Shown here: piece by piece, positions 5,584 to 41,530 of the stretch
How positions within the stretch are numbered: position 1 is the first letter of the stretch
Layout of the letters: each line of letters begins with the position of its first letter
Source: Longimicrobiales bacterium
GTDB lineage: Bacteria; Gemmatimonadota; Gemmatimonadetes; Longimicrobiales; Gaopeijiaceae
Direction: 5' to 3'
NCBI GenBank assembly: GCA_965203485.1
Contig: OZ241892.1
Span: 480,001-544,000, forward strand
Length of the DNA: 64,000 nt
Translations under genes and position numbers: made by a program
The notes under the pieces: model-generated
Databases searched by the model: none
What the model saw: the letters and a program-made list of their open reading frames with translations, nothing else
What the model was told of the DNA's origin: nothing

Positions 5584-6509
5584 GCGCGGCCGAAGGCGCG
5601 AGCGGGGTCGCCGGCCCGCGAACGGGGTGGCCGGCCGCCTCCGCGTGTCGCTCGACCGGGGGCGGCCGCCGCTCCCGAGCCGCATGGGCCGGGCTCGGCG
5701 TGGCCTTGCTGGGGACGGTGCTTTCCGGGTTGCCCCGCGGCCGGCCGCCGGGACCGGTCGCGGGTGTGGGCGAGGCGCCGCGGGCGCGCCCGGCCGAGTC
5801 CGGGCCTCACCGTGAGGTTGAACGGCTCCAGGACTTCCGCAACCTTCCCTACGACGGAGCCTACACGTTCGTGCGCGTGCGCTTCAACGTGGAGGGGCGG
5901 GGCGGCCCGGGACGCGGCTTCGGGCGGCAGGCGCCTTGGGCGCACGACTTCCCTTACGCCGACCGCAACTTCGCCAGGATCCTCGACGAGGTGACGCTCG
6001 TCGGGCCGCACACGGACGGCACCAACGTCGTGAGCGCGGACAGTCCCGAGCTCCACCGCTATCCCGTGGCGTACGTCGCCGAGCCGGGACAGTGGCGGCC
6101 GACGCAGGCCGAGACCGACAACTTGGCGGCATACCTCGCGAAGGGCGGCTTTCTGATCCTGGACGACTTTCGGGGCGCGAGGGAGTGGCAAACGGTCGAA
6201 GCCGTCTTCGGCGCGATTCTGCCCGGCCACCGCTTCCGGTTGCTGGAACTGGAGGAGCCTGTCTTCAATTCGTTCTTCCAGATCGAGACGCTGGACTTCT
6301 CGCCGCCCACTTTCAGGCAGTACAAGCCCTATTTTTTGGGCATCCACGAGAACGACGACCCGGTTCGGCGGCTGATGGTCGTCGCCAACTTCAACAACGA
6401 CATCGGCGACTACTGGGAATACTCGGACACGGGCTGGTTTCCGATCGACCTGTCCAACGAGGCGTACAAAGTCGGTGTCAACTACGTGATCTACGCTCTC
6501 ACGAGGTGA
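5580..6509 (+). CDS. DUF4159 domain protein
   Basis: YTFVRVRF, WAHDFPYADRNF, YLAKGGFLILDDF and GVNYVIYALT motifs; GTG start overlaps the upstream stop; exact start uncertain. Confidence 0.8.
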   Translation: MSAAEGASGVAGPRTGWPAASACRSTGGGRRSRAAWAGLGVALLGTVLSGLPRGRPPGPVAGVGEAPRARPAESGPHREVERLQDFRNLPYDGAYTFVRVRFNVEGRGGPGRGFGRQAPWAHDFPYADRNFARILDEVTLVGPHTDGTNVVSADSPELHRYPVAYVAEPGQWRPTQAETDNLAAYLAKGGFLILDDFRGAREWQTVEAVFGAILPGHRFRLLELEEPVFNSFFQIETLDFSPPTFRQYKPYFLGIHENDDPVRRLMVVANFNNDIGDYWEYSDTGWFPIDLSNEAYKVGVNYVIYALTR

Positions 6510-26643: not shown

Positions 26644-29139
26644 CTACAAAATCGAATCCAGGTGGAAGTGCGCGCGCAGGGGCGGGTTGGGCCCGTGGAG
26701 GCTTCGGGCCAAGTCCACGCGGATCAGTCCGTCGAGAAGCGTCAGGCCCGCCCCGGCGCCGTAGTGTGGCCGTGCCGTGCCGAAGTTGCGCGAATCTCCA
26801 GCCCAGCCGCCGTCGAGGAAGACGCCCAGTCCCACGAACTTGAACAACCAAGTCGCTTCGACGCGTCCGCGGGCAAACGCCGGTCCGGTGAGCACGGCGT
26901 CCGGATGCCCCCGGAGCGTCCGCGCCCCGCCCAGATGCCATGCCCGTTGTTGCAGTGCACGGCCCCAGGTCGTGCCTGCGCCGGCCTCCGCGCCCAGCCG
27001 CCACCGTCCCCACCCGGTCGCGAAGAGAGGCAACGCCGTTCGCAGAGTTGCTGAAGCCGCCGCGTAGCCCTCGTGAGCGCCTCCGTTCACAGGCCGCCAT
27101 CTCGCCGCTCGCGCCGTCACTTCCAGCCCGAACTGCGCAACGGACGCTTCGGCGCCCCACCACGGCGAAAAGCGCATTTCGATCCCCAATTCCGCGCCCT
27201 CGTCCACGGCTGGATTGGCAGGGAACGCCCATCCGTCCTCGCCTGCCTTGAACAGGGCGAAGCCCGCTTCGGTGCGCAGCGAACGATGGCGCTCGGCGTA
27301 GCCCCGCAGCAGGACGGATTCGCGGGCGGCGGCGGGCGGGCGCCAAACGAGGCCGAGGCCGGTGGAACGGTAGTACCGGCCCCGGTCGCGCCCCGCGAAG
27401 AAGGCCGCGGCCGAGTTGCCGGCTCCCAGGTAGGCCCCCGCGGGGTCGGTCGCCTGCGTCTCGTCGAACGCCTCCAAGGTGAAGCGGCGCAGCACGGTCA
27501 GGCGCTCGACTTCGATCCGCAGTTGCGGGCGCAGCTCCGCCAGCCCCAGCCTCGCGGCGACGGAGAGGGCGTGCCTTCCGTCGAGTTGCCAAGCTCCCCG
27601 CAATCCGGGGGCCAGCCCTTCGACGCGGTTGTAGCGGAGCATGCCGCGATCGCTCCAAGGCCAGCCCACCGACCAATCCAGCGCGGGCCGGGGCGCCCTC
27701 GGCAACTGGGCCAGGCTTTCCGCGAAGGCGTCCAGCTCGGCTTCGGACAGGAAGGCGGGAGCGTCTTCCCAGATTGGGGGCGGGAGGTGCGGGCTGTCCG
27801 TCAAGCCCGTCCGGTCCTCCGGAACGATGAAGAAGGACTCGCGCCCGCCGGGCGGAGGCGCGTCTGAACGGAGCTGCGCCGCGAACGCTGTCGCCTCGGC
27901 CTCGCTGTCGAACTGAACATCCGGGAAGTCCGCACCGCCCGCTTCGACCATGTCGCTTGCCGTGGTCACGGACTCGATCCGATAGGTCTGCTCGAACGAA
28001 GCGGGGAATCGAAACGAACCCGCGCGGATTTCCGCCTCGAGCCGCATCGTGCGAGGAAGCCACGCCTTGAAGTCCCACAGCGCGTAGTCGACCGCGAGCA
28101 GGCTCAAGTCCATCGTCAAGGGTCTCGCGAAGGGCATGAATCGCAAGGGGCTGTCGCCAAAGCCTTCCTCCGTGTCCCGGGTCACGTCGAGTTGCCGGCT
28201 CAAGCGGTAGACGGCGCGCACCAGGGCCCCCGACTCCGGCTCGATCCACAGCGTGCCCGCGATCCGGTGCGGGTCCGCCCGCAAGGGCAGGACGTGCAGC
28301 TGCACGGCTCGGAGTTCGCGTCCGTCCGGGAATCGCAGGGCAACCGTGTCGCCGCTCTGGTAGCGGTACGATTCGTGGGCGTTCGCGGCCAGCGGATGGG
28401 CGAACCAGAAATCGTCCGCGGCGCCGATCGGGCCCATGTCGCGCAGCTCCGTGCGCTCGCGGCCCTCGGTCTTGGCCAGCCCGAACAAGAGCCGGTCGGC
28501 GCCGGGATCGAACGGGCGACTGAAGGGAAGGTCGTTCAGCCAGCCGCGGTCCTCGGCGGGCTGCACCGTCCCGGTGGGGTCGCGGGAACGCATGCCGAGG
28601 ACCTGGACGATGGGATGCTTGTCCCGCCTCCAGAAGACGCGCAACGCGGTCTCGCTGGCGTACACGGTGCGGTCCTTGAGCGAAAGGCGGACAGCTGCGG
28701 CGAGCCGTTGCTGGACCCGCGCGGCGTAGCTGACGATGGATTCGTCCAACCGGCGCCACTGGGCCGCCGCGGCGTCGTAGAGGTCCCGGGCCGCAGTATC
28801 CACGAAGGCTTCGGCGGGCGGCCGCGCTGGCTGGCGCCGCGAGGCGTCGGCTTGCTGGATCCGCGCGACGGCCGCTTGCGCTGGCGGCGGCCGGCCAACG
28901 ACGAGCGCCAGCGCGGCGAAGACGGCGACGGCGCACGCCGGGTTTGCGCCGCTCGGCAATCCACTCCTCCTCGCAACCTTCCATGGGACGAAGACCCTGC
29001 AGGCCTTGCCGAACAGCGGCACCAGCGACCCGGCGGCGCGCCCGTCCTCAATGACCACGTACTCGTTCCTTCCGGCGGTCCGGCCGATTCTGTCGAGTGG
29101 CAAGCCGTCGGCGCCGCAGCGCCAGTCGCGCGGCCTCAA
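26644..29139 (-). CDS. Hypothetical outer-membrane protein with C-terminal beta-barrel
   Basis: Long host-like ORF; LRYNRVEGL, FLDGGWAG, GAGLTLLDGLIRVDLAR; true start probably nearer 28.95-29.0 kb. Confidence 0.55.
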   Translation of the reverse strand: MRPRDWRCGADGLPLDRIGRTAGRNEYVVIEDGRAAGSLVPLFGKACRVFVPWKVARRSGLPSGANPACAVAVFAALALVVGRPPPAQAAVARIQQADASRRQPARPPAEAFVDTAARDLYDAAAAQWRRLDESIVSYAARVQQRLAAAVRLSLKDRTVYASETALRVFWRRDKHPIVQVLGMRSRDPTGTVQPAEDRGWLNDLPFSRPFDPGADRLLFGLAKTEGRERTELRDMGPIGAADDFWFAHPLAANAHESYRYQSGDTVALRFPDGRELRAVQLHVLPLRADPHRIAGTLWIEPESGALVRAVYRLSRQLDVTRDTEEGFGDSPLRFMPFARPLTMDLSLLAVDYALWDFKAWLPRTMRLEAEIRAGSFRFPASFEQTYRIESVTTASDMVEAGGADFPDVQFDSEAEATAFAAQLRSDAPPPGGRESFFIVPEDRTGLTDSPHLPPPIWEDAPAFLSEAELDAFAESLAQLPRAPRPALDWSVGWPWSDRGMLRYNRVEGLAPGLRGAWQLDGRHALSVAARLGLAELRPQLRIEVERLTVLRRFTLEAFDETQATDPAGAYLGAGNSAAAFFAGRDRGRYYRSTGLGLVWRPPAAARESVLLRGYAERHRSLRTEAGFALFKAGEDGWAFPANPAVDEGAELGIEMRFSPWWGAEASVAQFGLEVTARAARWRPVNGGAHEGYAAASATLRTALPLFATGWGRWRLGAEAGAGTTWGRALQQRAWHLGGARTLRGHPDAVLTGPAFARGRVEATWLFKFVGLGVFLDGGWAGDSRNFGTARPHYGAGAGLTLLDGLIRVDLARSLHGPNPPLRAHFHLDSIL

Positions 29140-32100
29140 GCGCTTGGCTGTTCGCGTGGCGCCGCGCCCTCCGGCCTTCCCGAAGACACCAGCCGAAAGA
29201 TGCTCTCCGCCACCCAGCGCTTGAAGGACTCGTCGTCGGAGAACCGCTTGAAGAACTGCATGTCGTCCTCGATGGTCCCGTTGACGGCGCGCTTCAGCGC
29301 CTTGTCGTGCTCGATCCGCACGTTCTGCCTATCCGATTGCTCCTGGGCGTTGCGAAAGGACTCGTCGCTCTTGACCGCCGCCGGCAGGTCCTCGGTGATC
29401 AGACGGCGAACGCGGTCTTCGTCGCGCCACTGGCCGTCTCCGCCCCAGCGGTCGTTGAACTGCGCGATGATGGCGGACAGCAGGTCGAGTTCCGGTTCGC
29501 GGGCATGGCCTCCTCCGCCCACGGCGGCCGGATCGATTTCTTCTTCGTCCTCGCTCATTTGGATCTCCCGCATGGCCTGCTTCTCGATGCGGTAGCTGTC
29601 CATGTCGATTGCCTCGAGGATGCCGCGCGACAAGTCCTCTTCCTTGGGCGCGGGCAACCTGGGGACCAGGAACTGCAGAAAGATCGACCGCTTCTCCCAG
29701 GGCGCGTACGTCCAGGTCAGGATCGACGACAGGAATCCGTAGGTGCGCAAGAACGTCTTGGCCTTGCCCTTGAAGTCCACCTGGCCGTCCTCGTCCAGCT
29801 CGTTCACGTAGACATTCACGCTCGCGTCGAGGATGGGATCGAGCTGGTCGCGGTCCGCTCCGTCCAGATACAGCTTCACGAACTGGCCCACCACGTCCGG
29901 GTCGTAGACCTGGCGGCCGTCCAGGACGCTCTGCAGGTCGTGGAGCTTGTCCGGGTCGGTTTCGCCCGAGAGAATCGTCGTCCGATAGTACGGCGCGAAC
30001 GCTGCCCTGATCGCGTCCTCGTCGTTCGCGAAGTCCAGCACGGTCACGTCGTGCTTCTTTGGACCGGCCCGGTTCAAGCGCGACAGAGTCTGCACGGCGC
30101 GCACGCCCGACAGCGGCTTGTCCACGTACATCGTGTGAAGCAAAGGCTCGTCGTAGCCCGTCTGGAACTTGTCGGCGCAGACCAGGATGCGGTACGGGTC
30201 GTCGCGAAACTTGTCGGCCGTCCGCGACTCGGGGAATCCGTTCAGCGACGCTTCGGAGACCGTGGCGCCGCCGTGTTCGCGCTCGCCGGAGAACGCCACG
30301 AGCGCCCGGTACGCTCGCTTCCGCTTCGCCAAGTAGGATCGGATGGCGTCGTAGTACTGGATGGCTCGCTGAACATTGCTCGTCACCACCATCGCCCTGG
30401 CCCGGCCGCCGATCTTGCGTTGCGCCACGACTTGATTGTGAAAGTGGTCGGCCATGATCTCGGCCTTCAAGCGGATTGCGTGGTCGTGGCCCTCCACGTA
30501 GCGTCGCAACTTCTTCGTCGCTCGCTTGGCGTCGAAGACCGGATCGTCCTCCACCCTCTTGGCCAGCCGGTAGTAGCTGCGGATCGGCATGTAGCGCTGC
30601 ACCACGTCCAGGATGAAGCCCTCCTCCACGGCCTGCTTCATGGTGTAGGAATGGAAGGGCCTGCGCTTGGTTTCGCCGTCGGCGCCGCGCTCCAGACCGT
30701 CCGGCCGCGGCACAGGGGTCCCGAAGAGCTCCAGCGTCTTGTTCTTGGGCGTGGCCGTGAAGGCGAAGTAGCTGGCGTTGGACAGCATCCGGCGGGATTC
30801 GACGATGCGGTTGATCCGGTCTTCGAGCGTGTCGCCCTCGTCGGCGCCGGCATCGTCCTCGTTCAAGGCGCCGTCCGCGCCGCCGTCCGCGTCCTCGCCA
30901 GCGGTTCCGCCCTCGGCGTCGTCGTCGCCCTCGGTAGCATCGTCTCTTGCGCTCCCCGCCCCCGACAGCGCTTGCGACATGGCCCCCGACTGCCGGCCCC
31001 CCTGGCTGGAGTGCGCCTCGTCGATGACGACGGCAAAGGTGCGGCCGCCGGCCTGTGCCCGAATCTCGTCCAGGATGAACGGAAATTTCTGAACCGTGGA
31101 GATGACGATCTTCTTGCCGCCCTCGATGAACCGGCGCAGGTCGCCGGATCGGCGGGCGTGGCCGACGGTCGCTCCCACTTGGGCGAATTGCTTGATCGTG
31201 TCGCGGATCTGCCGGTCCAGAATGCGCCGGTCGGTGACGACGACCACCGAATCGAAGACCGGCTTGCCGTGCCTAGCCAAGCCGATCAGCTGGTGGGTCA
31301 GCCAAGCGATCGAGTTGGACTTGCCGCTGCCCGCCGAGTGCTGGATCAGATAGCGCCGCCCCGCGCCGTGCCGACGAGCGTCGTCCAGCAGCTTGCGCAC
31401 CACGTCCAGCTGATGGTACCGGGGCCAGACCTGCGTCTTGCGCTGGCGTCCTGTTTCGGGGTCCCTCGTCGCCAGCATCTGCGCGTAGTTCTCGATGATG
31501 CCGGCCACGCTGTCGCGGGACAGCACGTCCTCCCACAGATACGCCGTGGAAAGCCCGGCCGGGTTCGGCGGATTGCCTGCGCCGTCGCGATGCCCCCGGT
31601 CGAACGGCAGAAACCACGAGTCCTTGCCCCGCAAGTGCGTGCAGAACCGCACGCGATGCTCGTCCACCGCGAAGTGGGCCGCGCACCGCCCCAGCTCGAA
31701 CAGCCTCTCGCGCGGACTTCGGTCGCGCACGTACTGGCGCACCGCGTCGTCCACCGTCTGCTTGGTCAGCCGGTTCTTGAGCTCGAAGGTGGCGATGGGC
31801 AACCCGTTGACGAACAGCGCCAAGTCCAGCGCCAGCCCCGCTTGGTCCTTGCTGTAGCGCAGTTGCCGCGTAACGGTGAAGCGGTTCGCGTCGTAGCGCA
31901 TCCTGGCCGCTCTGTTGCCCGGAGAAGGCGTGCCGTAGTAGAGGCCGACCTCGTGCCGCCCGTGCTGGATGCCGCGACGAAGCACTGCGATCGTGCCGTG
32001 CGTGCTGATCTGCCCTTGGAGGCGGGCCAGAAACTTGCGACGGACGGGGCCGTCTTCGTGCAACGCCAGGGCCTCGGCCGTGTCGGGCTGGGTGACGGAC

Positions 32101-32375
32101 AGGAAGCCCGCGAGCTGGGCGATATCCACGCAGTGCTCGCGGTCGTAGTCGCGGGGGTCGCCGCAGAGCCAGCCGGAGCCCCGGCGGGATTGGCCGTTGG
32201 GCGCGCCGGCCTCGTAAGCAGACCGAGGCTCCCCCGCCCGGAAAGGGGATGCGCGGCCGTTGCTGGGTGCGTTGCCGGCGCCGTCGTTGCCGCCAGCTTC
32301 CGGATCGCAGGGCGAGCCCGTCATGGCGGCGCAGATCAGCCGTTCAAGGCCGCGTTCGGTGGTGTCGGTGGGCAA
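29136..32375 (-). CDS. hsdR: Type I restriction endonuclease subunit R
   Basis: DLALFVNGLPIATFELK nuclease motif, QHSAGSGKS, DEAH, FTATP, QTLSRLNR. Confidence 0.95.
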   Translation of the reverse strand: MPTDTTERGLERLICAAMTGSPCDPEAGGNDGAGNAPSNGRASPFRAGEPRSAYEAGAPNGQSRRGSGWLCGDPRDYDREHCVDIAQLAGFLSVTQPDTAEALALHEDGPVRRKFLARLQGQISTHGTIAVLRRGIQHGRHEVGLYYGTPSPGNRAARMRYDANRFTVTRQLRYSKDQAGLALDLALFVNGLPIATFELKNRLTKQTVDDAVRQYVRDRSPRERLFELGRCAAHFAVDEHRVRFCTHLRGKDSWFLPFDRGHRDGAGNPPNPAGLSTAYLWEDVLSRDSVAGIIENYAQMLATRDPETGRQRKTQVWPRYHQLDVVRKLLDDARRHGAGRRYLIQHSAGSGKSNSIAWLTHQLIGLARHGKPVFDSVVVVTDRRILDRQIRDTIKQFAQVGATVGHARRSGDLRRFIEGGKKIVISTVQKFPFILDEIRAQAGGRTFAVVIDEAHSSQGGRQSGAMSQALSGAGSARDDATEGDDDAEGGTAGEDADGGADGALNEDDAGADEGDTLEDRINRIVESRRMLSNASYFAFTATPKNKTLELFGTPVPRPDGLERGADGETKRRPFHSYTMKQAVEEGFILDVVQRYMPIRSYYRLAKRVEDDPVFDAKRATKKLRRYVEGHDHAIRLKAEIMADHFHNQVVAQRKIGGRARAMVVTSNVQRAIQYYDAIRSYLAKRKRAYRALVAFSGEREHGGATVSEASLNGFPESRTADKFRDDPYRILVCADKFQTGYDEPLLHTMYVDKPLSGVRAVQTLSRLNRAGPKKHDVTVLDFANDEDAIRAAFAPYYRTTILSGETDPDKLHDLQSVLDGRQVYDPDVVGQFVKLYLDGADRDQLDPILDASVNVYVNELDEDGQVDFKGKAKTFLRTYGFLSSILTWTYAPWEKRSIFLQFLVPRLPAPKEEDLSRGILEAIDMDSYRIEKQAMREIQMSEDEEEIDPAAVGGGGHAREPELDLLSAIIAQFNDRWGGDGQWRDEDRVRRLITEDLPAAVKSDESFRNAQEQSDRQNVRIEHDKALKRAVNGTIEDDMQFFKRFSDDESFKRWVAESIFRLVSSGRPEGAAPREQPSA

Positions 32376-32571: not shown

Positions 32572-33735
32572 TCAGGAAGCCGTCCTCGCGTGCGCCAGCA
32601 GTTCCTGCCCGCTCGCGCAGTCGATGACGAGATCGGCGACCTCGGCGAGCCGCTCTGAAGCGGAGACCTCCTCCAACAGCGCGCCAAGCTCCTTTGCCGT
32701 CTCCGCGTCGAACTTCCGTCGCGCCAAGCGCACCAGGGTCGCCCGGCGCTCGAGCAGAGCACGCGCTTCGGCTTCCTGGCGACCTTCCTGCCGGCCTTCC
32801 TCGCGGACTTCCCGGCGAACCTCCTCGCGGACTTCCTCGCGAACCTCCTGGCAAACCTCCTCGCGGACCTCCTGGCGGACCTCCTCGCGGACCTCCCGGC
32901 GGTTCTTCTCGCGGTCCTCCGCCAACCAAATCTGTGCGACCCCGCCCGTCAGGTCGCCCATCTGCTTCACCTTTGCCACGTCCTCCTCCTTTGCTCCTTG
33001 GTCGATCATCAAACTTCGCACCCACGCCACCAGCCCCTCGCGCGCCGCGCTGTCGCGGGGCAGCAACGCCCTCAACACCGGCAACGCCTCCTCAACCTCG
33101 GCGCTGTTCGCCGCGTAGCGCAACTTCAGCGCCGCCTCGCGCGCCGTCGTCCCGCGCTCGATCTCCCGCGCCTCTTGCGCCTCCGACACGAGCACGAACT
33201 GGTGGCCGAGCGCGAACGGAAGGAACGCCTTCGCCTCGTCGGCCAGCAGATCCTCGAGCCGCGCCGGCGCCGTCCACCGCTCCGGCCCGACGTGCACGAC
33301 GATGGGCAGCACGGGCGGCAACCCGCGCGTCCGGCTCGCCTCTTGGCTCTTGGCCAGGTAGTCGTAGGCCAGGGCCGTCTCGAGCAAGATGCGCACGGCC
33401 ATTCGCCAGTCCGACGCCGCCTGGAACTCGAAAAGCAAGACGACGTAGAGCCACGAGTCGCGAAACGGCGCCCGCCACACGAGGTCGGCGTGGCGCGACG
33501 TGCGCAACTTGGGATCGACGTGCTCGGTCGGCGCCGGCTGGAGACCCTCGAGGTCGATGCGGTCGGCGACGCTGGCGGGGACGACCTTGCCGAAGACGTG
33601 CTTGGCCAGAAACTCGGCGACGATCCGCTTCTCGCGGTAGACGAGCTTGGCGCTCTTGTCCAGCGGCTGGTGGGCAGGCGGTTCGTCGTCCGGCTCGGGG
33701 TCGAGACGGCGGTCTCGGGGGCTGATGGGCGTCAT
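32572..33735 (-). CDS. Rpn family (YhgA-like) PD-(D/E)XK nuclease / putative transposase
   Basis: D..AK, ADLVWR, LFEFQ, MAVRI, LPPVLPIVV, EGRQEGRQE coiled tail, LARRKF. Confidence 0.85.
   Translation of the reverse strand: MTPISPRDRRLDPEPDDEPPAHQPLDKSAKLVYREKRIVAEFLAKHVFGKVVPASVADRIDLEGLQPAPTEHVDPKLRTSRHADLVWRAPFRDSWLYVVLLFEFQAASDWRMAVRILLETALAYDYLAKSQEASRTRGLPPVLPIVVHVGPERWTAPARLEDLLADEAKAFLPFALGHQFVLVSEAQEAREIERGTTAREAALKLRYAANSAEVEEALPVLRALLPRDSAAREGLVAWVRSLMIDQGAKEEDVAKVKQMGDLTGGVAQIWLAEDREKNRREVREEVRQEVREEVCQEVREEVREEVRREVREEGRQEGRQEAEARALLERRATLVRLARRKFDAETAKELGALLEEVSASERLAEVADLVIDCASGQELLAHARTAS
32773..32901. repeat. In-frame 12-bp imperfect tandem repeat (about 10 units; EEVR/QEVR/EEGR)
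   Basis: cctcgcggactt/cctcgcggacct-type units are visible; protein REVREEVRQEVREEVCQEVREEVREEVRREVREEGRQEGRQE. Confidence 0.85.
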
Positions 33736-34189
33736 GGACGTTGCGCCGGGGACGTGAACAAGGGCGGGCGCGCCCCCGGCCAGGCGGCGCTGGCCACGGA
33801 TTCGCCGTGCAAGGCTTCCGGAAGAAGCGTGCCATAAGACGGTCGCTGTCCGACGCCAGAATGCAAATGGCGGAATGGGACCCGTTGCATGTCCAAATGG
33901 GTCGATGACGGAAACGCCTCCGGCCAAGCGGTCGCCGATCGGCTTCATCCGGGGCTCGATGCGGGTTGCGAGGCGCGACGGGGCGAACCTGGTTCCTGGA
34001 AGGCTGAATGGTCGCGCCCGGCCGGACGCCCGCAGCTTTGACGGATGCCGGTTGCGGCTTTAAGCTTGCTGGTCCATGCGGTCCGCCCTCCCAGGCGGGG
34101 CGAACGAAATTCTGGACGTGTCGATTCGATTGCGATGCCAACGAAGCCGTCGTGGATCACCCAATCATCCAACGGGGCCTGGAACCAAT

Positions 34190-34954
34190 ATGATTGACGA
34201 AGTTCAACGCCTCGTGGACCAATACTGGAACTGGTTGCAGGAGCAGACGACAATCCGGGAGGTCGGAGACCACGTCGAGATCACGACTCCCTACCTGGAC
34301 CGCCACAACGACTGCTTCCAGATGTATGCTCGCCGACGCGAAGATGGATTCATCCTTACGGACGACGGCTACGTGCTCAACGACTTGGCGCAGGCCGGCG
34401 TCGACGCAACCAGCGGCAAGCGCGGATTGTTGCTGGAGGAAACGCTCAACGGCTTCGGGGTCCGGGAAGTCGCGGGTGCGTTGCAAGTGGAGGCGTCGCC
34501 CGAAGACTTCGGCCTGCGAAAGCACAACCTCCTTCAGGCCATGCTCGCTGTTTCCGACATGTTCTACTTGGCGTCGCCGACGGTCGAAAGCCTGTTTCAC
34601 GAAGACGTGATTGCGTGGCTCGACACGTCCAGCATCAGATACACGCCGAACGTCAAGCTCTCCGGCAAGAGCGGCTTCGACCACAAGTTCGACTTCGTCA
34701 TTCCGAAATCGCCGGATCAGCCCGAGCGAGTGTGCAGGTCCATCAACCGTCCCGACCGCAACGCGGCGCAAACCATGGTCTTCGCGTGGGAGGACACCAA
34801 GGAAGCTCGCGACCCCAACACTGTAGCCTACGCCATCCTAAACGACGCGGATCGGTCCGTATCACGGTTTGTCGACAAGGCACTCGAAAGTTACGATGTG
34901 CGGCCGGTCCGCTGGTCGACCCGCGAGGAAGCGATAAAGAAGCTAGCGGCATAG
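34190..34954 (+). CDS. DUF1828/DUF1829 domain protein
   Basis: EITTPYLDRHND, LTDDGY, KHNLLQAM, GKSGFDHKFDFVIP. Confidence 0.85.
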   Translation: MIDEVQRLVDQYWNWLQEQTTIREVGDHVEITTPYLDRHNDCFQMYARRREDGFILTDDGYVLNDLAQAGVDATSGKRGLLLEETLNGFGVREVAGALQVEASPEDFGLRKHNLLQAMLAVSDMFYLASPTVESLFHEDVIAWLDTSSIRYTPNVKLSGKSGFDHKFDFVIPKSPDQPERVCRSINRPDRNAAQTMVFAWEDTKEARDPNTVAYAILNDADRSVSRFVDKALESYDVRPVRWSTREEAIKKLAA

Positions 34955-35092: not shown

Positions 35093-36679
35093 TCACGCCG
35101 CGGTCTCTATGTTCGTGCCGGCGATCCCTCGGACGTCCACCTTGCCGGTCACCACGTCGGAGATCAAGCGGGTTCGGTACTCGCGGAGCAGCTCCATTTC
35201 CCGGCGTGCGAGTTCTGCCGCTCTGTCGATCTTGGCGGTTTCGCGGTCGAGGAACGCACCGATGGCCTCCTGTTCTTGCCGTAACGGAAGAGGTATGACC
35301 AAGTGCTTCAGTCCGCTAGCGTAGATGTGCATTACCGTCACTCCACGTCCCATACAGGATTTCTGCCAGGAAGCATGTGCACAATCAAGCGCGTATCCAC
35401 TGAACACGGGATTCAATGCGCCAAAATTTGGTCGAAAGACTATGACATCTCCACTGCAACATGTATGTTCGCGGAGGAGAGTTGTGACTGATTTGCCAAT
35501 GTCGTCGAGCGTTTCGCCTGATCCGGCGAAGAGTACATCTCCATACAAAACTTGCGTGTAGCCCTCGCTCACCTGTTCCGATACAAATCCGAAAGGTGTC
35601 CTGACATGACGGTCGTACATCGTGTAAATGTCTCCGTAGCGTATGCATGGAACACCCGTCGTCGATCTGTCGTTGCGTGTGCCACCTGAGCCTTTGAAGA
35701 AGTCCCCGAACGTCCCGAGTGGTTTGACTTCCCAATGCTCCGGCACGTCCCCCAGCCACTCCACTCCGCTCGGCTTGAGTTTCGGATGCGGATCGAATCC
35801 GGCCTTGCGCGCCTCGTCGGGCGGAAGTCCGCGTGTCACGGTCCGGCTGACGAGGACGGTGCGGTGTTCATCGAGTCTCTCGACCAGAATCTCCTTTTGG
35901 CGAATCAAGGCGTCGATCTTGGCGGTTTCGCGGTCGAGATAGAGGACTATTGCACACGACTCGGAAGGAGTGGGCAAGGGTAATCGCAAGTTGCCAATCC
36001 AGTTCCAACTGGCTCTTGGCATTCTAGCACCAGAAGTGCGCAGGTTTACGTTGTCGATAAAACCGGGGGTCAGCAACGCATACAGGAGATAGCTTGCATA
36101 ACTCGAAGGATTTCTTTCCCTAAGAACAATAAACTCGGATGAACACAAGCCGTCAGCATCAGGACGGCATGCCTTGGCCAAGTAGGGGCGCAACTTGCCA
36201 AACAGAATGTCACCAGCGAGGAATGGAGCAAATGACGAGTTTCGATCTGCCGAGTGAGGGACAGGCGTCTCGAGTAGCCTACCGGTCCACGACTCAACCG
36301 AGTCCATGCCTACATGCAGAGGCTTGCCGATCGAGTCCTCAACATCGTGCTTGTTGTCAATCCTTGACAATACGCGCTGTAGTGGTTTGACCTCCCAATG
36401 CTCCGGCACGTCCCCCAGCCACTCCACTCCGCTCGGCTTGTACTTCGGATACGGCATGAGGTCCAATGCGCGGGCTGCCCCGTTCTCCGATTGCAGGGTC
36501 TTCGGCGATTTCACCTCGGACATCAGTCGACGCAATGTCGGGTCCGTGTATTCTTGGGACAGACGCCACTGTTGAATGTCGTCGGCCGTCATGTGTTCAA
36601 GCTCTTTGCCGATGCGGTCTCGGATCTCGCGCAGGTGCTTGACGTGGGTGAAGGGCCGATCGTCGGCGGAATCAGTCAT
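35093..36679 (-). CDS. hsdS: Type I specificity subunit HsdS with an N-terminal 74-aa antitoxin-like extension
   Basis: Two KPSGVEWLGDVPEHWEVKPL and two LDRETAKID conserved blocks, two low-GC TRDs, EYRTRLISDVVTGKVDVR end; HsdS proper begins near M at 36457. Confidence 0.93.
   Translation of the reverse strand: MTDSADDRPFTHVKHLREIRDRIGKELEHMTADDIQQWRLSQEYTDPTLRRLMSEVKSPKTLQSENGAARALDLMPYPKYKPSGVEWLGDVPEHWEVKPLQRVLSRIDNKHDVEDSIGKPLHVGMDSVESWTGRLLETPVPHSADRNSSFAPFLAGDILFGKLRPYLAKACRPDADGLCSSEFIVLRERNPSSYASYLLYALLTPGFIDNVNLRTSGARMPRASWNWIGNLRLPLPTPSESCAIVLYLDRETAKIDALIRQKEILVERLDEHRTVLVSRTVTRGLPPDEARKAGFDPHPKLKPSGVEWLGDVPEHWEVKPLGTFGDFFKGSGGTRNDRSTTGVPCIRYGDIYTMYDRHVRTPFGFVSEQVSEGYTQVLYGDVLFAGSGETLDDIGKSVTTLLREHTCCSGDVIVFRPNFGALNPVFSGYALDCAHASWQKSCMGRGVTVMHIYASGLKHLVIPLPLRQEQEAIGAFLDRETAKIDRAAELARREMELLREYRTRLISDVVTGKVDVRGIAGTNIETAA
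35718..35777. repeat. 60-bp direct repeat preceding TRD2 of hsdS
   Basis: 59/60 identical to 36381-36440. Confidence 0.9.
36381..36440. repeat. 60-bp direct repeat preceding TRD1 of hsdS
   Basis: 59/60 identical to 35718-35777. Confidence 0.9.
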
Positions 36680-36890
36680 CGGGCTCTGCCGACTGCCTTG
36701 AACGTGTAGGCGACTTTGGCTTGGCTCTGGACATCAGGCGGCGTAGTTTCGGGTTCTTGTATTCTCGAGACTGGTGCCACCGATAGGCCTCCTCGGCCGT
36801 CATGTGTTCGAGCTCCTTGTTGATGCGATCTCTGATTTCGCGGAGGTGCTTGACGTAGCTGAAGGACTTCTTGTCCGTAGGTTCAGTCAT
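36672..36890 (-). CDS. Small helical protein, putative antitoxin of the upstream PIN domain
   Basis: 72 aa; F..VK.LREIRDRI.KELEHMT pattern resembles small proteins found downstream of this PIN class; 8-bp ATGACTGA overlaps at both ends. Confidence 0.75.
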   Translation of the reverse strand: MTEPTDKKSFSYVKHLREIRDRINKELEHMTAEEAYRWHQSREYKNPKLRRLMSRAKPKSPTRSRQSAEPDD

Positions 36891-39333
36891 GGTGCTCGAT
36901 CTCCCGTGGTGAGCGGATGTCGATGGATTGGTGTTCCCGGACGACGTTGACGGAGTTGCATATCTGGATTCGCCGGGCGTTCACGATGTGCTTGAAGTTC
37001 CAGCTGACCAAGACGTCGGCCTCGGCGAGCGTGGCCAGCGCGATGTGCTCGGCGTCGGCCTGCATCGACGGCGCCAGGGCGCCCGCGTCAATATAGGCCA
37101 GGGCAAGGCGTTCCGCGTCTTCCGACGCCTGGACCTCCTCTATGTGCGCGTCCGGGACCTGCTCCAGGACGTCTTGGACCTCCTGTCTTGCGCCTTCGAG
37201 TTCCGTGGCGGTTAGGTGCGACAGAAGCAGAACGTGCTCTCCCCGACCGAAGGCCTTGAACAGACGGCATGAGGGCTCCCGGAACTCTTCGTCGAAGCAC
37301 CCGCCCACGACGGTGGTGTCCACGTAGACCCGCAATCGCGCCCCGTAGGGCATCGGCCGGGGCTCGGCCACGAGCGCCGCCAGCAGGGCGTTGGACTTTC
37401 GGCGCACCGAACGGATGTCGGCTCGGATCGCGCGCAACGGCCGCATCGGCTTCGGCTTGTAGAAGTGGCGCGCGAAGTTGATCTCGTAGCCGGTCTTCAC
37501 CGAGTTGGGACGGTGCCAGGCGTCCGGCGCGTAGGGCAGGACCTCCCGGCGGAGAAAGGCATCCACGCCGCCCTCCTCCGTCAAGGGAACCCGCTCGGTG
37601 TCGCGAAGGTCGGGGTCCGGCTCGTACTCGACGACGGCGGGCGTTCCGTCCACCTGCGCCTCGAACCGGCCCACGAGCGCGTCGGCATCGACGCCCGTCT
37701 TCCACGCCCGCCGAATCACGGGCGCCGCCTCCGGGTCCCGCTCGCCGTCCTCCTTCAGGCGCTTGATCTCCGCCGCCTTGTAGACGCGCCCGGGCTCGGC
37801 CCCGGCGATCCGCAACGGCCGCTCGACCGTCGCCTTCGCGTATCCGAAGGCGTCGTTCGGGAAGATCTTCGACTCGTCCGTCTCCTCGAACGCCAGGAAG
37901 ACGTCGCACACGCGCTGGGCGTCCTCGTCCGACAGCTCGCAGTTCTTCTTGCCCAAGTTCTTGCGCAACGGCGTGAACCACCGGGTCGCGTCGATCAGCT
38001 GGACCCGGCCGACGCGATGTTCGGGCTTGCGGTTGGTCAGGACCCAGACGTACGTGGCGATGCCCGTGTTGTAGAACATGTTCAGGGGCAGCGCGACGAT
38101 CGCCTCGAGCCAGTCGTTCTCGATCATCCAACGGCGGATGTTGCTCTCGCCCTGGCCCGCGTCGCCGGCGAACAGCGAGCTGCCGTTGTGGACCTCGGCG
38201 ATGCGGCTGCCCAAAGTCGTGCTCTGCTTCATCTTGCTCAGCATGTTGGCCAGGAACAGCATCTGGCCGTCGCTGACGCGGGTCGCCAGCGAGAACTCCG
38301 GGTCGCGGCCGTGCTCGACCACGAACCGGGGATCGCGCATGTCGCGCTTGCCGCCCATGCGCTGCAAGTCGCTCTTCCAGCTCTTGCCGTAGGGCGGGTT
38401 CGACAGCATGAAGTCGAACTCCTTGTCGGGGAACGCGTCGTTGGACAAGGTCGAGTGCTCGGGGCCGCCCACGATGTTGTCGGCCGCTTCGCCTTCGCCC
38501 TTCAGCAGCAGGTCGGCCTTGCAGATCGCATAGGTCTCGGCGTTGATCTCCTGGCCGTACAGATGCGTGGCCACCTTCTTGCCGCGCTCCTCGGCCAGCG
38601 CCTGCAACGTCTGCTCGGCCACGGTCAGCATGCCGCCGGTGCCGCACGCGCCGTCGTAGAGCAGATACGTGCCGTTCGCGATCTCGTCGGCCACCGGCAG
38701 GAACACGAGCTTGGCCATCAGCTTCACGGCGTCGCGCGGCGTCCAGTGCTCGCCGGCCTCCTCGTTGTTCTCCTCGTTGAAGCGCCGGACCAGCTCCTCG
38801 AAGATCGTGCCCATGCCGTGGTTGTCGAGGCCGGGATGCCGCACCGTTCCGTCGGGCTTGAGCACGGGCTCCGGTCCCAGGTTCACGTCGGGCGACGTCA
38901 GCTTCTCGATCAGCGAGCCCAGCGCGTCCGCCCTGGACAGGCGCGGAACCTGGTTGCGGAACTCGAAGTTGTCGATGATCTCCTGGACGTTGGGCGAGAA
39001 GCCGTCCAAGTACGCCTCGAAGTCGGCCCGCAGCCGTTGCTGGCTGGCCCGCGCCTTCAGGTCCTGCATCGTGAAGGGCGACGCGTTCCAGAACGCTTGG
39101 CCCGCCGCCGCGCGCAGTCCGCCGTCCTGGTTCGCGACGCCGGCCTCGTCCAGCATGGCTTTCCGCTCCCGCACGGGCTGCTTGGTCGGCTCCAGCACCG
39201 CGTCCAGCCGGCGCAGGACGGTCATCGGCAGGATCACGTCGCGATACTTGCCGCGCACGTACAGGTCCCGCAGCACGTCGTCGGCGATGCCCCAGATGTA
39301 GTTCGCGATCCAGGCCAGCTGAGCATGATCCAT
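36883..39333 (-). CDS. hsdM: Type I m6A methyltransferase HsdM fused to a C-terminal PIN (VapC-like) domain
   Basis: GEHWTPRD, YDGACGTGGML, NPPY, FYNTGIATY, GYEINF..HFY; then RVYVDTTVVGGCFDEEF...ADAEHIALA...LVSWNFKHIVN...IRSPRE with no stop in between. Confidence 0.93.
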   Translation of the reverse strand: MDHAQLAWIANYIWGIADDVLRDLYVRGKYRDVILPMTVLRRLDAVLEPTKQPVRERKAMLDEAGVANQDGGLRAAAGQAFWNASPFTMQDLKARASQQRLRADFEAYLDGFSPNVQEIIDNFEFRNQVPRLSRADALGSLIEKLTSPDVNLGPEPVLKPDGTVRHPGLDNHGMGTIFEELVRRFNEENNEEAGEHWTPRDAVKLMAKLVFLPVADEIANGTYLLYDGACGTGGMLTVAEQTLQALAEERGKKVATHLYGQEINAETYAICKADLLLKGEGEAADNIVGGPEHSTLSNDAFPDKEFDFMLSNPPYGKSWKSDLQRMGGKRDMRDPRFVVEHGRDPEFSLATRVSDGQMLFLANMLSKMKQSTTLGSRIAEVHNGSSLFAGDAGQGESNIRRWMIENDWLEAIVALPLNMFYNTGIATYVWVLTNRKPEHRVGRVQLIDATRWFTPLRKNLGKKNCELSDEDAQRVCDVFLAFEETDESKIFPNDAFGYAKATVERPLRIAGAEPGRVYKAAEIKRLKEDGERDPEAAPVIRRAWKTGVDADALVGRFEAQVDGTPAVVEYEPDPDLRDTERVPLTEEGGVDAFLRREVLPYAPDAWHRPNSVKTGYEINFARHFYKPKPMRPLRAIRADIRSVRRKSNALLAALVAEPRPMPYGARLRVYVDTTVVGGCFDEEFREPSCRLFKAFGRGEHVLLLSHLTATELEGARQEVQDVLEQVPDAHIEEVQASEDAERLALAYIDAGALAPSMQADAEHIALATLAEADVLVSWNFKHIVNARRIQICNSVNVVREHQSIDIRSPREIEHHD

Positions 39334-39383: not shown

Positions 39384-40088
39384 CTACGCCGGCGCGCCCC
39401 CAACGCCAACCCGGTCGATTCCGTGGCGGTCGGACGGGGATTTGCGAGTCCGCATCTCCGACGCTAGTTCCTGCTCCAGCCTTCGTTGTTCCTTCGTTGC
39501 GTCCGCTTCCGCCACGATGCCGGCCCCCACATACGCCCGTACCGCTTCCGCCACCGATTCCACCTGAACGACGCGCGTGAGCTCGTCATCTCGCGCCGAT
39601 CGCCAGTGAAGCGCCACGCCGACGTCAGGCGCCACTTGCAACTCTGGCCTGCCCAACGGGTCTTCTTTCTTGAGCGTCGTCAGTAGCACGGCAGCCCCTC
39701 GCCACACTTCCACGAACCGGTCCCGCTCCTCCCTGCCCGGCATTTTGCCGCGTGGCTCGCGCTGGATTTCAGCGTGGGCTGGGTTCTCCGGTATAGGTCG
39801 GTCCGTGACGCTCCAAAGCCGGTGTCCTTCCGCATCGGTCAGCATGCGGATTTCTGCCGTCCTGGCCTTGATCGTGCCCCGCATGCCGCGACCGCCCATG
39901 ACTGCTTGCACATGGTGACTCCGGTCGACCGACGCACCGCCTTCCTCTTTGGTCCACCGGAGCGCTCTACGCGGAAACGCAGATCGAGGGACAGCTCCGC
40001 TACCCGTCTCTCGCGCTCCAGGGGGTAGCCGTCTCTCCAGTTCTTCGTTGTCATCAACCACCCCAAGCGCGTGTGCTCCCGGGCTCAT
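39384..40088 (-). CDS. Hypothetical protein, possible ADP-ribosyltransferase/RES-like fold
   Basis: E.L.RR, AF, ASVD and PENPAHAEI in the order expected for ART-like folds; by eye only. Confidence 0.5.
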   Translation of the reverse strand: MSPGAHALGVVDDNEELERRLPPGARETGSGAVPRSAFPRRALRWTKEEGGASVDRSHHVQAVMGGRGMRGTIKARTAEIRMLTDAEGHRLWSVTDRPIPENPAHAEIQREPRGKMPGREERDRFVEVWRGAAVLLTTLKKEDPLGRPELQVAPDVGVALHWRSARDDELTRVVQVESVAEAVRAYVGAGIVAEADATKEQRRLEQELASEMRTRKSPSDRHGIDRVGVGGAPA

Positions 40089-40127
40089 TCCCTCAGCCGG
40101 AAACTTCTCCCCTCGCTTGACCAGGTC

Positions 40128-40688
40128 TCAGACCTCCCCGTGCATCTCTTCCAGCCAAGACATGACCCGATCAAGTTCTTCTCGGCTGTGTTCCACAAAG
40201 CGTCCCTCCTCGCTCTCTTCGCTCAGTGTGCGGCTGATGTAATAGCCGACGGTGCCGTTTTCTTCCGTGCCGATCTCGACCCTGCCGTATCCACTCCGCC
40301 AGATGATGCAGATCTCCCACGCCTCGTCGGCGTAGACCTCGTCGGGTTGCTTCCATGCGTCACGCAACCCCAGCAACGCAGCGATGCGATTCCTGTTGAT
40401 CTCAATCTGCGGCATGATCCCTCCCTTGACTTGGGCCGCTCGCAAGGTGTCGGCGTCGATTGTGTCCAGGATCTCTCGCGTCGTCTTGGCTTCCTGTCCG
40501 CTACCACTCGTGTCAATTCCTCCAAGACCTTTCTCATCTATCTGCCATGTAGTGGCATTTCCAAGTGCTACGGTAGTGTCTTCTTCCTGTCTGGGCGGTG
40601 ACAAACGACTTGATCCTCGCCTTGCTACGTAGCGTCCGTGTCTCAATCCCACGTCGGGTACTGATGCGATCATCCCGGCCGTGGTCAT
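40128..40688 (-). CDS. Hypothetical protein, middle gene of the TIGR04255-like triad
   Basis: 186-aa ORF with ATGA overlap to the upstream gene; C-terminal I.W...GRVEIG...GTVGYY beta-rich part. Confidence 0.6.
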   Translation of the reverse strand: MTTAGMIASVPDVGLRHGRYVARRGSSRLSPPRQEEDTTVALGNATTWQIDEKGLGGIDTSGSGQEAKTTREILDTIDADTLRAAQVKGGIMPQIEINRNRIAALLGLRDAWKQPDEVYADEAWEICIIWRSGYGRVEIGTEENGTVGYYISRTLSEESEEGRFVEHSREELDRVMSWLEEMHGEV

Positions 40689-41530
40689 ATCTGCCCTCCC
40701 GGTTGATTCATTCCGATCCGCTTGGCGATGTCTTCGGTGACCAGGTTCCCGAACAATGCATGGATGCGTCGATGCAGTTTGTCGTATACAGCTCGGCCGT
40801 TGCTCTCGCTCTCATCGACAGAATGAATTTTCCCGAACGCCCTGTCGAGCCTCAGGCGCGCTGTTGTTTCTCGAAATCCCCAGATCGCGGTTGTCTCCAC
40901 CTTGACGATCGGACGGACCTTCTGTCCCTCCGCACGCAGTTCTGCCCCTATCTGAAACCGCTCCAGGATACGTTGCCCGTCGGGATCTTCAATCCACCCT
41001 TCCCCTATGTGCCACATCTTCGAATTCCCGGCTTTCGACGGTATCCGTTCTTCCCGGACTGCGAGCTTTGGATCGTAGGTGGCATCAGGGCCGTGCCAGA
41101 CGAACATGTCTTGGTAGGTGAGCCCAGCACTGCAAACCTGTGCGAGCGGATGGTCGTTCCCAAGAACCTTTCCTACGCTGGCAAACAGCTCGTAGGCCTT
41201 TTCGCTCACGCTCTTCCATCCCCCGTACTGAGCGCATCCGATTGTGATTGTCGGCCCGGCGACCTCCATCCACCACGCGGCCTGGCCCGTGCGCTTGAAT
41301 TCAACGTACTGCGTGGGCGCCAGCGGCTTTGGCCTGTCGTCCACAAGGGGCGTCGGGCCCACCGCGATCTCCATCACATGGCCACGCCTCACCGTCGGCA
41401 GCACGGCCTTCCAGTAGTTCTCGTAGCCTTCGTCCAGCTTCGCTCGCTCGTGCTCCGTCATCTCGCCACTTCCGGTGAGGCGGAAAATCACGGCCTCGAT
41501 GGCGTGATCTCGGTGCAACGGCTCAAACAT
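40685..41530 (-). CDS. TIGR04255-like protein
   Basis: HAIEAVIFRL, QYGGWKSV, AGLTYQDMF, LH......FGNLVTEDI...IG pattern. Confidence 0.65.
   Translation of the reverse strand: MFEPLHRDHAIEAVIFRLTGSGEMTEHERAKLDEGYENYWKAVLPTVRRGHVMEIAVGPTPLVDDRPKPLAPTQYVEFKRTGQAAWWMEVAGPTITIGCAQYGGWKSVSEKAYELFASVGKVLGNDHPLAQVCSAGLTYQDMFVWHGPDATYDPKLAVREERIPSKAGNSKMWHIGEGWIEDPDGQRILERFQIGAELRAEGQKVRPIVKVETTAIWGFRETTARLRLDRAFGKIHSVDESESNGRAVYDKLHRRIHALFGNLVTEDIAKRIGMNQPGGQI

Follow-up and report, generated by a model that had tools for sequence, protein, structure and literature searches.

Among the closest described systems is PrrC of EcoprrI, an RNA-directed suicide nuclease that is encoded between hsd genes, is tied to and silenced by the restriction-modification (R-M) proteins, and serves as a back-up when restriction is disabled (PMC12707154; 10.1101/2024.01.29.577857). 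PIN-type toxin-antitoxin (TA) genes transcriptionally coupled to hsdM, hsdS, and hsdR, some of them without a recognizable antitoxin, were described by Matelska, Steczkiewicz, and Ginalski in 2017 (PMC5499597); according to the part of that paper that deals with them, no direct interaction between TA and R-M proteins had been shown at that time. A different architecture, the PIN-GNAT-EVE proteins, is also found near Type I systems (PMC7641849). For the known systems, little is understood of how such nested genes "read" the state that the R-M complex is in. Here, we describe a Type I R-M locus of a Longimicrobiales bacterium (Gemmatimonadota; assembly GCA_965203485.1, contig OZ241892.1, positions 480,001 to 544,000), in which a predicted VapC-like PIN domain is fused to the methyltransferase subunit HsdM, and a copy of a small putative PIN inhibitor is fused to the specificity subunit HsdS. 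The whole stretch of 64,000 nucleotides (nt) that was analyzed is referred to as the window. "A" is our working name for the small partner protein, A1 being its free copy and A2 its HsdS-borne copy.

The hsdM-PIN, A, and hsdS operon and its two in-frame fusions

The locus encodes HsdM, an HsdS with two target-recognition domains, and HsdR, the set of subunits by which a Type I R-M system is recognized. Working from the letters of the window, the original prediction had read the operon as an HsdM-PIN protein of 816 amino acids (aa), a 72-aa open reading frame (ORF), and an HsdS with a paralogous N-terminus, and both this anatomy and its coordinates proved to be right (Table 1). The hsdM-PIN gene is a single open frame in which the Pfam domains HsdM_N (residues 9-145, E=4e-20) and N6_Mtase (residues 171-487, E=1e-49) are followed by about 175 more residues; the PADLOC model MTase_I (PDLC03029) matches at E=7e-231, and the HsdM of the window is 55-89% identical to the HsdM of eight related loci. 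HsdS is matched by the PADLOC model Specificity_I (E=1e-97) over residues 77-519, with an internal repeat visible by tblastn. The hsdR of the window is 58-62% identical to that of the related loci. A1 aligns with residues 1-68 of HsdS with 37/68 identities (54%, E=2e-23), and a hidden Markov model of the A family matches A2 at E=4e-30. The genome consists of one 3.56-Mb contig, in which the small domain is present in just these two copies.

The original prediction had noted the same 8-bp overlap of stop and start at both junctions, and this is read directly from the sequence: the coding strand has ATGACTGA, and the plus strand tcagtcat, at both places. The overlap of junction 1 is also present in two related loci (L023 and L024), and a comparable cassette on a Leptospira plasmid has an 8-base start/stop overlap too, in different letters. 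The chained ATGACTGA overlaps should couple the translation of HsdM-PIN, A1, and A2-HsdS. A scan of the locus for promoters and terminators was uninformative, with one promoter-like site found against 1.1 expected. An internal start at codon 75 of hsdS (Met), from which an unfused HsdS could be made, was considered and is not supported: the 20 nt upstream hold no clear Shine-Dalgarno sequence, and the codon is Val in 2 of 7 relatives.

The fusions were then compared with independent data, namely Logan contigs from the sequencing runs that hold the stretch, which are sponge and marine metagenomes, with no RNA data set listed among them. In runs X1 and X4, the contigs are identical to the window (0 differences) across both junctions and the HsdM-PIN linker. 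In another study (run X6), a 7.9-kb contig that has 20 substitutions and is free of gaps covers both junctions, and a contig from a third study (run X5) spans the PIN/A1 junction gap-free. The junctions, for which a check on reads had been called for, are free of indels in the contigs of X1, X4, and X6; an insertion inside A2 in X5 is taken up below. The HsdM-PIN and the A-HsdS fusions are each seen again in independent assemblies. An assembly or frame error behind the apparent fusions could have been suspected, as the genome is probably metagenome-assembled like its nearest relatives; yet contigs from three studies span the junctions without indels, and 25 HsdM-PIN clusters and seven A-HsdS proteins exist besides. 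For the strain of the window this explanation is refuted, and its residual probability is negligible. The fusions are confirmed as genuine and not an assembly artifact.

Table 1. Features of the Type I R-M locus, in positions of the window.
Feature	Coordinates	Strand	Description
hsdM-PIN, full ORF	39333..36883	-	816 aa
hsdM proper	37411..39333	-	residues 1-641 of the 816-aa protein: HsdM_N, N6_Mtase, C-terminal region of the family
Linker and PIN	36883..37410	-	helical linker (about residues 642-661) and VapC-like PIN (about residues 665-812), predicted; in-frame fusion to hsdM
Junction 1	36883..36890	-	overlap of hsdM-PIN stop and A1 start, ATGACTGA
A1	36672..36890	-	free copy of the small partner protein, 72 aa; putative PIN inhibitor/antitoxin
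Junction 2	36672..36679	-	overlap of A1 stop and A2-hsdS start, ATGACTGA
A2-hsdS, full ORF	36679..35093	-	528 aa
A2	36458..36679	-	paralogue of A1, in-frame on the HsdS N-terminus (residues 1 to about 60, with leader to 74)
HsdS proper	35093..36457	-	two target-recognition domains and conserved helices; Pfam Methylase_S
hsdR	29136..32375	-	1079 aa; Pfam HSDR_N, SWI2_SNF2, ResIII, T1R_D3-like

The PIN domain, its partner, and the standalone PIN-A cassette

The C-terminal domain of HsdM was modeled with AlphaFold2 from an alignment of 100 relatives, at a predicted local distance difference test score (pLDDT) of 92.2 and a predicted template modeling score (pTM) of 0.85. The best matches of the model in the Protein Data Bank (PDB) by Foldseek are PIN/VapC structures (1w8i, 3zvk, 3h87, and 6ifc; probability 1.00, E from 1e-4, template modeling score by target 0.54-0.68), and they include AF1683 and the VapC of Rickettsia, Mycobacterium, Salmonella, and Shigella. 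A HMMER search of 1.84 billion representatives yielded 2737 PIN relatives at E <= 0.001, of which 793 reach E <= 1e-10; most of them are standalone and about 150 aa long. Pfam PIN or PIN_3 matches 29 of the 30 standalone ones tested at E <= 0.1, and some pass Pfam's own cut-off. The putative catalytic residues D672, E711, D760, D773, and N779 stand at the canonical positions and are retained in 31-32 of the 32 sequences compared, fused and standalone alike, and D31, E70, D119, and N138 (in the numbering of the PIN family) are at least 90% conserved family-wide. Because of this fold and these relatives, the proposed PIN domain on HsdM is supported as VapC-like, with an acidic site that the model and the alignments indicate to be intact. 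A scan of the PIN domain of the window against NCBIfam gave no match, and its profile returned noise from PDB sequences (best E=0.26, chaperonins).

The standalone PIN relatives are for the most part paired with A. We called a pair when an A-profile match started -60 to +200 nt from the end of a standalone PIN, and by this measure an A gene lies right after the PIN in 62 of the 74 metagenome loci with at least 180 nt downstream, another 6 being too short to count. Among 10 viral contigs, 6 have the pair. An HsdM-like gene was found in the flanks of 1 of the 80 metagenome PIN loci, and because of this the PIN-A cassette can be regarded as autonomous. On the Leptospira plasmid pLiSL47 (L105, 1486-2131), a PIN-A pair stands directly after the replication initiation gene; its PIN is annotated by PGAP as "type II toxin-antitoxin system VapC family toxin", and its 63-aa partner, which overlaps it by 8 nt and matches the A profile at E=4e-12, as "hypothetical protein". 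Two small genes, adjacent, co-oriented, coupled, and traveling together, is the arrangement by which a type II TA module is recognized, and PIN-A has it. PIN-A is a widespread, mobile, toxin-first two-gene cassette whose partner family is unnamed.

Eighteen close relatives of A1, 60-72 aa long, were found, and distant A relatives (31-42% identity) occur in 10 of 400 other genomes of the phylum: six directly after HsdM-PIN, two after a standalone PIN of 156-161 aa (L020 and L021), and two as orphans (L014 and L016). The Atlas holds clusters of 68-aa "hypothetical protein" for A, with no named family, and the best hit of the A profile among PDB sequences is at E=0.19. From its gene placement, A is supported as a conserved, putatively cognate partner of the PIN domain. 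The co-folding of PIN and antitoxin proposed in the original prediction was run for A1 and gave a prediction in its favor: PIN and A1 scored 0.84 against 0.28 for the best of three controls, and A1 was placed over the active site. Of the solved complexes, 116 of 157 attained this mark, as did 2 of 215 mismatched pairs; the calibration is only rough here because we supplied our own alignments. Contacts recur between the co-fold runs to at least 86%, the partner has a pLDDT of at least 71, and the predicted interface joins PIN residues 32-40, 68-75, 114-121, and 137-138, which flank all catalytic residues, to A residues 11-56. The predicted complex supports, though it does not prove, a role for A as an inhibitor that covers the PIN active site.

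Taken with the genomic evidence, the locus of the window probably goes back to a PIN-A cassette of the TA type that was acquired between hsdM and hsdS and became a covalent part of the Type I methyltransferase. Two other readings of the nuclease were weighed. The first is that the locus is a relic, a captured cassette with an inert PIN and decaying small domains; Ala stands at the first Asp in one fused fragment (P0187) and some A2 domains are broken, as a relic would have it, but the site residues are kept in nearly every sequence over a range of 45-100% identity, and the ratio of nonsynonymous to synonymous substitution rates (dN/dS) is below 1 in all pairs of A copies (0.07-0.54). We regard the relic as very improbable. 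The second is that the PIN is a working defense nuclease, directed against the RNA or DNA of invaders or against hsd transcripts, and not a self-directed toxin, with A as its regulator. DNA nucleases do exist among PIN-like domains, the HsdM-PIN fusion is stably kept, and a possible restriction role of PIN domains in Type I operons was raised by Matelska et al. (2017; PMC5499597). The nearest folds, however, are VapC toxins; in 79 of the 80 metagenome loci no R-M genes accompany PIN-A, and one PIN-A pair neighbors the replication gene of a plasmid, as addiction modules do; and hsdR is present wherever the flanks of the related loci reach it. A defense nuclease is improbable on this evidence, and a captured TA-type cassette remains the reading that we carry forward.

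Conservation of the fusions and a proposed mechanism

HsdM-PIN is represented by 25 protein clusters of 808-822 aa, all with HsdM_N, N6_Mtase, and PIN, at a PIN identity of 45-100%, and by nine genome loci (the window included) from at least two families of the class. One outcome that would have spoken for recent readthrough, namely that homologues always keep PIN and antitoxin as separate genes, is thus excluded for HsdM. The reciprocal design, with the inhibitor built into HsdS, did not hold up as the basic plan: the HsdS of the other eight HsdM-PIN loci lacks an intact A domain, and these loci have 1 to 4 free A copies. Between hsdM-PIN and hsdS there is one A copy in six loci with a plain HsdS, two in the window, three in L023, and four in L024. 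The basic conserved plan is HsdM-PIN with at least one free A, and the region from PIN to hsdS is a fast-changing array of A copies.

Two of these arrays have features of their own. In L023, the order is a free A, a 246-aa protein composed of an A domain, an HsdM-type linker, and a second PIN (A'-linker-PIN2; L023:6212-6952, plus strand), a third A gene that follows it as its own, and an hsdS with a weak A remnant (E=0.16). The junction in A'-linker-PIN2 fits a tandem duplication, in which the 3' end of hsdM-PIN seems to have been copied together with A. The AlphaFold2 model of this natural A'-PIN2 chain (pLDDT 89.7, pTM 0.65) gives A as three helices (12-27, 32-41, and 47-55); its inter-domain contacts are unreadable, and it was used for secondary structure alone and not for binding. 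In L024 (6001-6844, plus strand), hsdM-PIN is followed by a row of four A genes, in which two sequence types alternate and every gene overlaps the one after it; the hsdS behind them is unfused.

The A-HsdS fusion is found in seven further HsdS proteins of 495-542 aa, with the A domain at 61-88% identity. The domain is whole in five of these seven (61-78% identity), and among the whole relatives the target-recognition domains differ, the overall identity to the HsdS of the window being 44-74%. There is a hint that A-HsdS and HsdM-PIN proteins share contigs: P0170 and P0179 have longest contigs of equal size (636783), as have P0174 and P0194 (194573). The HsdS-borne A is a recurrent product of the array, confined to one lineage and sometimes broken.

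For the captured cassette, we propose a mechanism in which the PIN would hang from the HsdM C-terminus on a helical tether, and A would sit over the acidic active site and keep the nuclease silent. In the lineage of the window, the A gene would have been duplicated and one copy joined to the HsdS N-terminus, from which it would follow that an assembled complex of two HsdM and one HsdS (M2S1) has one tethered and one free inhibitor for its two PIN domains, A2 for the one and presumably A1 for the other, as in the original prediction. EcoKI still functions when its HsdM and HsdS are engineered into a direct fusion (Roberts et al. 2012; PMC3510504), so the C-terminus of HsdM and the N-terminus of HsdS can be neighbors, and it is therefore geometrically plausible that a tethered inhibitor reaches a tethered PIN. 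Were the operon, HsdS, or A to be lost, or the complex to be disrupted, the nuclease would no longer be inhibited, and the outcome may be operon addiction, abortive infection, or both. The benefit may accordingly be addiction to the operon, a back-up against anti-restriction like that of PrrC, or the two together. The RNase activity, the toxicity, the instability of A, the M2S1 geometry, and the trigger are all parts that we infer. In a bolder version, M2S1 would be the sensor of a suicide switch, in which two HsdM-tethered PIN RNases are held by one HsdS-tethered and one free inhibitor, and break-up of the complex or removal of HsdS fires the RNase and aborts the infection. This version is doubtful, with DNA-mimic anti-restriction proteins, proteolysis, and operon loss as candidate triggers, and anti-restriction proteins (Ocr, ArdA, or Stp-like), which the original prediction had named, are unlikely to be the specific trigger. 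If it were true, it would be the first R-M guardian that is covalently part of the R-M subunits, resting on a large, undescribed toxin-first PIN-inhibitor family.

Several findings weigh against this mechanism, and those that concern HsdS equally suit its main rival. According to this rival, HsdM-PIN and the free A are functional, and A-HsdS is a neutral in-frame readthrough that resulted from duplication or deletion in the A array and has no role in the complex. Just one of the nine HsdM-PIN genome loci, the window itself, has an HsdS with an intact A domain, and the number of A copies varies from 1 to 4 across the nine. Two of the seven A-HsdS relatives are shortened and begin inside the A domain. 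The X5 contig has a 2-nt insertion at 36574, inside A2; placed in the sequence of the window, it would end the frame after 52 aa and leave a 501-aa open frame for HsdS. The A'-linker-PIN2 protein of L023 is another fusion that looks accidental, and with an 8-nt overlap each junction is one indel away from fusing. On the other side, the five full-length A-HsdS proteins have kept the domain despite their exchanged target-recognition domains, the dN/dS of A2 against the other copies is 0.24-0.50, and most of the fused A copies retain A1-like residues in the helix that is docked on PIN in the co-fold. Neutral readthrough is a real possibility, though we would not call it probable.

The remaining points against the mechanism concern the PIN domain, its partner, and the setting of the operon. 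The Pfam PIN_3 match of the HsdM domain, although aligned over the whole profile, is below its own threshold (E=0.016; it scores 16.5 bits where 27 are required), the one correction to the otherwise confirmed anatomy. A matches no Pfam, NCBIfam, or PADLOC family, and no DNA-binding domain was recognized in it. The toxin-first gene order is the rarer arrangement in TA modules. The co-fold, besides its alignments being our own, was made with A1 and not with the HsdS-borne A2, and the identity of A1 and A2 at the predicted interface is 17/31 as compared with 37/68 overall; there is no enrichment, so the interface is conserved no more strongly than the remainder of the domain. Lastly, 2.7 kb of inserted genes separate hsdS from hsdR.

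Neighboring genes and comparison with known systems

Two genes are inserted between hsdS and hsdR, and others were noticed upstream of hsdM and in the related loci. A DUF1828/DUF1829 protein (34076-34954, plus strand) matches the PADLOC candidate defense model PDC-M24B at E=1.5e-99, and a DUF1828 protein is also encoded just upstream of hsdM in L023. Next to it is an Rpn/YhgA-like protein (32572-33948, minus strand; Transposase_31, E=9e-18) with long C-terminal REEVRQEV-like repeats; rpn genes are described as toxic defense genes in a Type I island of E. coli (PMC12707154). Upstream of hsdM, three co-oriented ORFs of 234, 186, and 281 aa (39384-41530, minus strand) have no Pfam or PADLOC match and may be further cargo of a defense island. 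Among the related loci, L013 has a second PIN-type TA pair between hsdS and hsdR (5940-6493), made up of DUF433 (E=2e-13) and a DUF5615/Mut7-C-like protein (E=5e-4), and ORFs resembling this pair, judged by eye from their translations, are found in L015, L017, and L018. Two relatives, L018 (5939-7945, minus strand) and L019 (8271-10499, plus strand), have inserted restriction genes of the GmrSD type (DUF262) that separate the A gene from hsdS. In L018, an ORF that is integrase-like by eye cuts off the 5' part of hsdM.

A full-text literature search, with most subscription journals and REBASE outside its reach, found no HsdM-PIN fusion and no antitoxin-like domain on HsdS, in keeping with the original prediction, which knew of no described system with this reciprocal fusion. 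PIN-type TA genes in Type I operons are among the closest known systems. The cases in the section of PMC5499597 on these operons are separate genes of other PIN families (e.g., DUF433-PIN_10), and that section describes no covalent fusion to HsdM or HsdS. The engineered EcoKI fusion joins the same termini that are of concern here and shows that they tolerate additional covalent links; the construct of PMC3510504 is artificial and is described there without a toxin or an inhibitor.

With PrrC, the locus shares a nuclease embedded among hsd genes, here both by position and by covalent fusion. The architecture differs: PrrC is a separate protein of the ABC-ATPase type, with an anticodon nuclease, and is silenced by the complex itself, whereas the nuclease of this locus is a predicted PIN domain without an ATPase, covalently held on HsdM, and its putative inhibitor is a dedicated protein that occurs both free and on HsdS. 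With VapBC modules, the likeness lies in the PIN fold, the acidic site, the small partner predicted to lie over that site, the coupling of the genes, and the occurrence on plasmids and phage-like contigs. Unlike in VapBC, the gene of the putative toxin precedes that of its partner, and this toxin is part of an 816-aa enzyme. The partner, about 60-85 aa long and unnamed, has three predicted helices, and no DNA-binding domain was found in it.

Two parts of this work are worth following on their own, namely the partner family of a large PIN family that is found on plasmids and phage-like contigs, and the conserved HsdM-PIN enzyme family, which annotation pipelines label as plain HsdM. Because both partners are built into the R-M subunits, the sequence itself spells out the coupling between them, which makes it open to direct testing. 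In essence, the nesting of TA or guardian genes in Type I R-M systems is known, and what is new is their covalent fusion to HsdM and HsdS with a partner family that had not been described.

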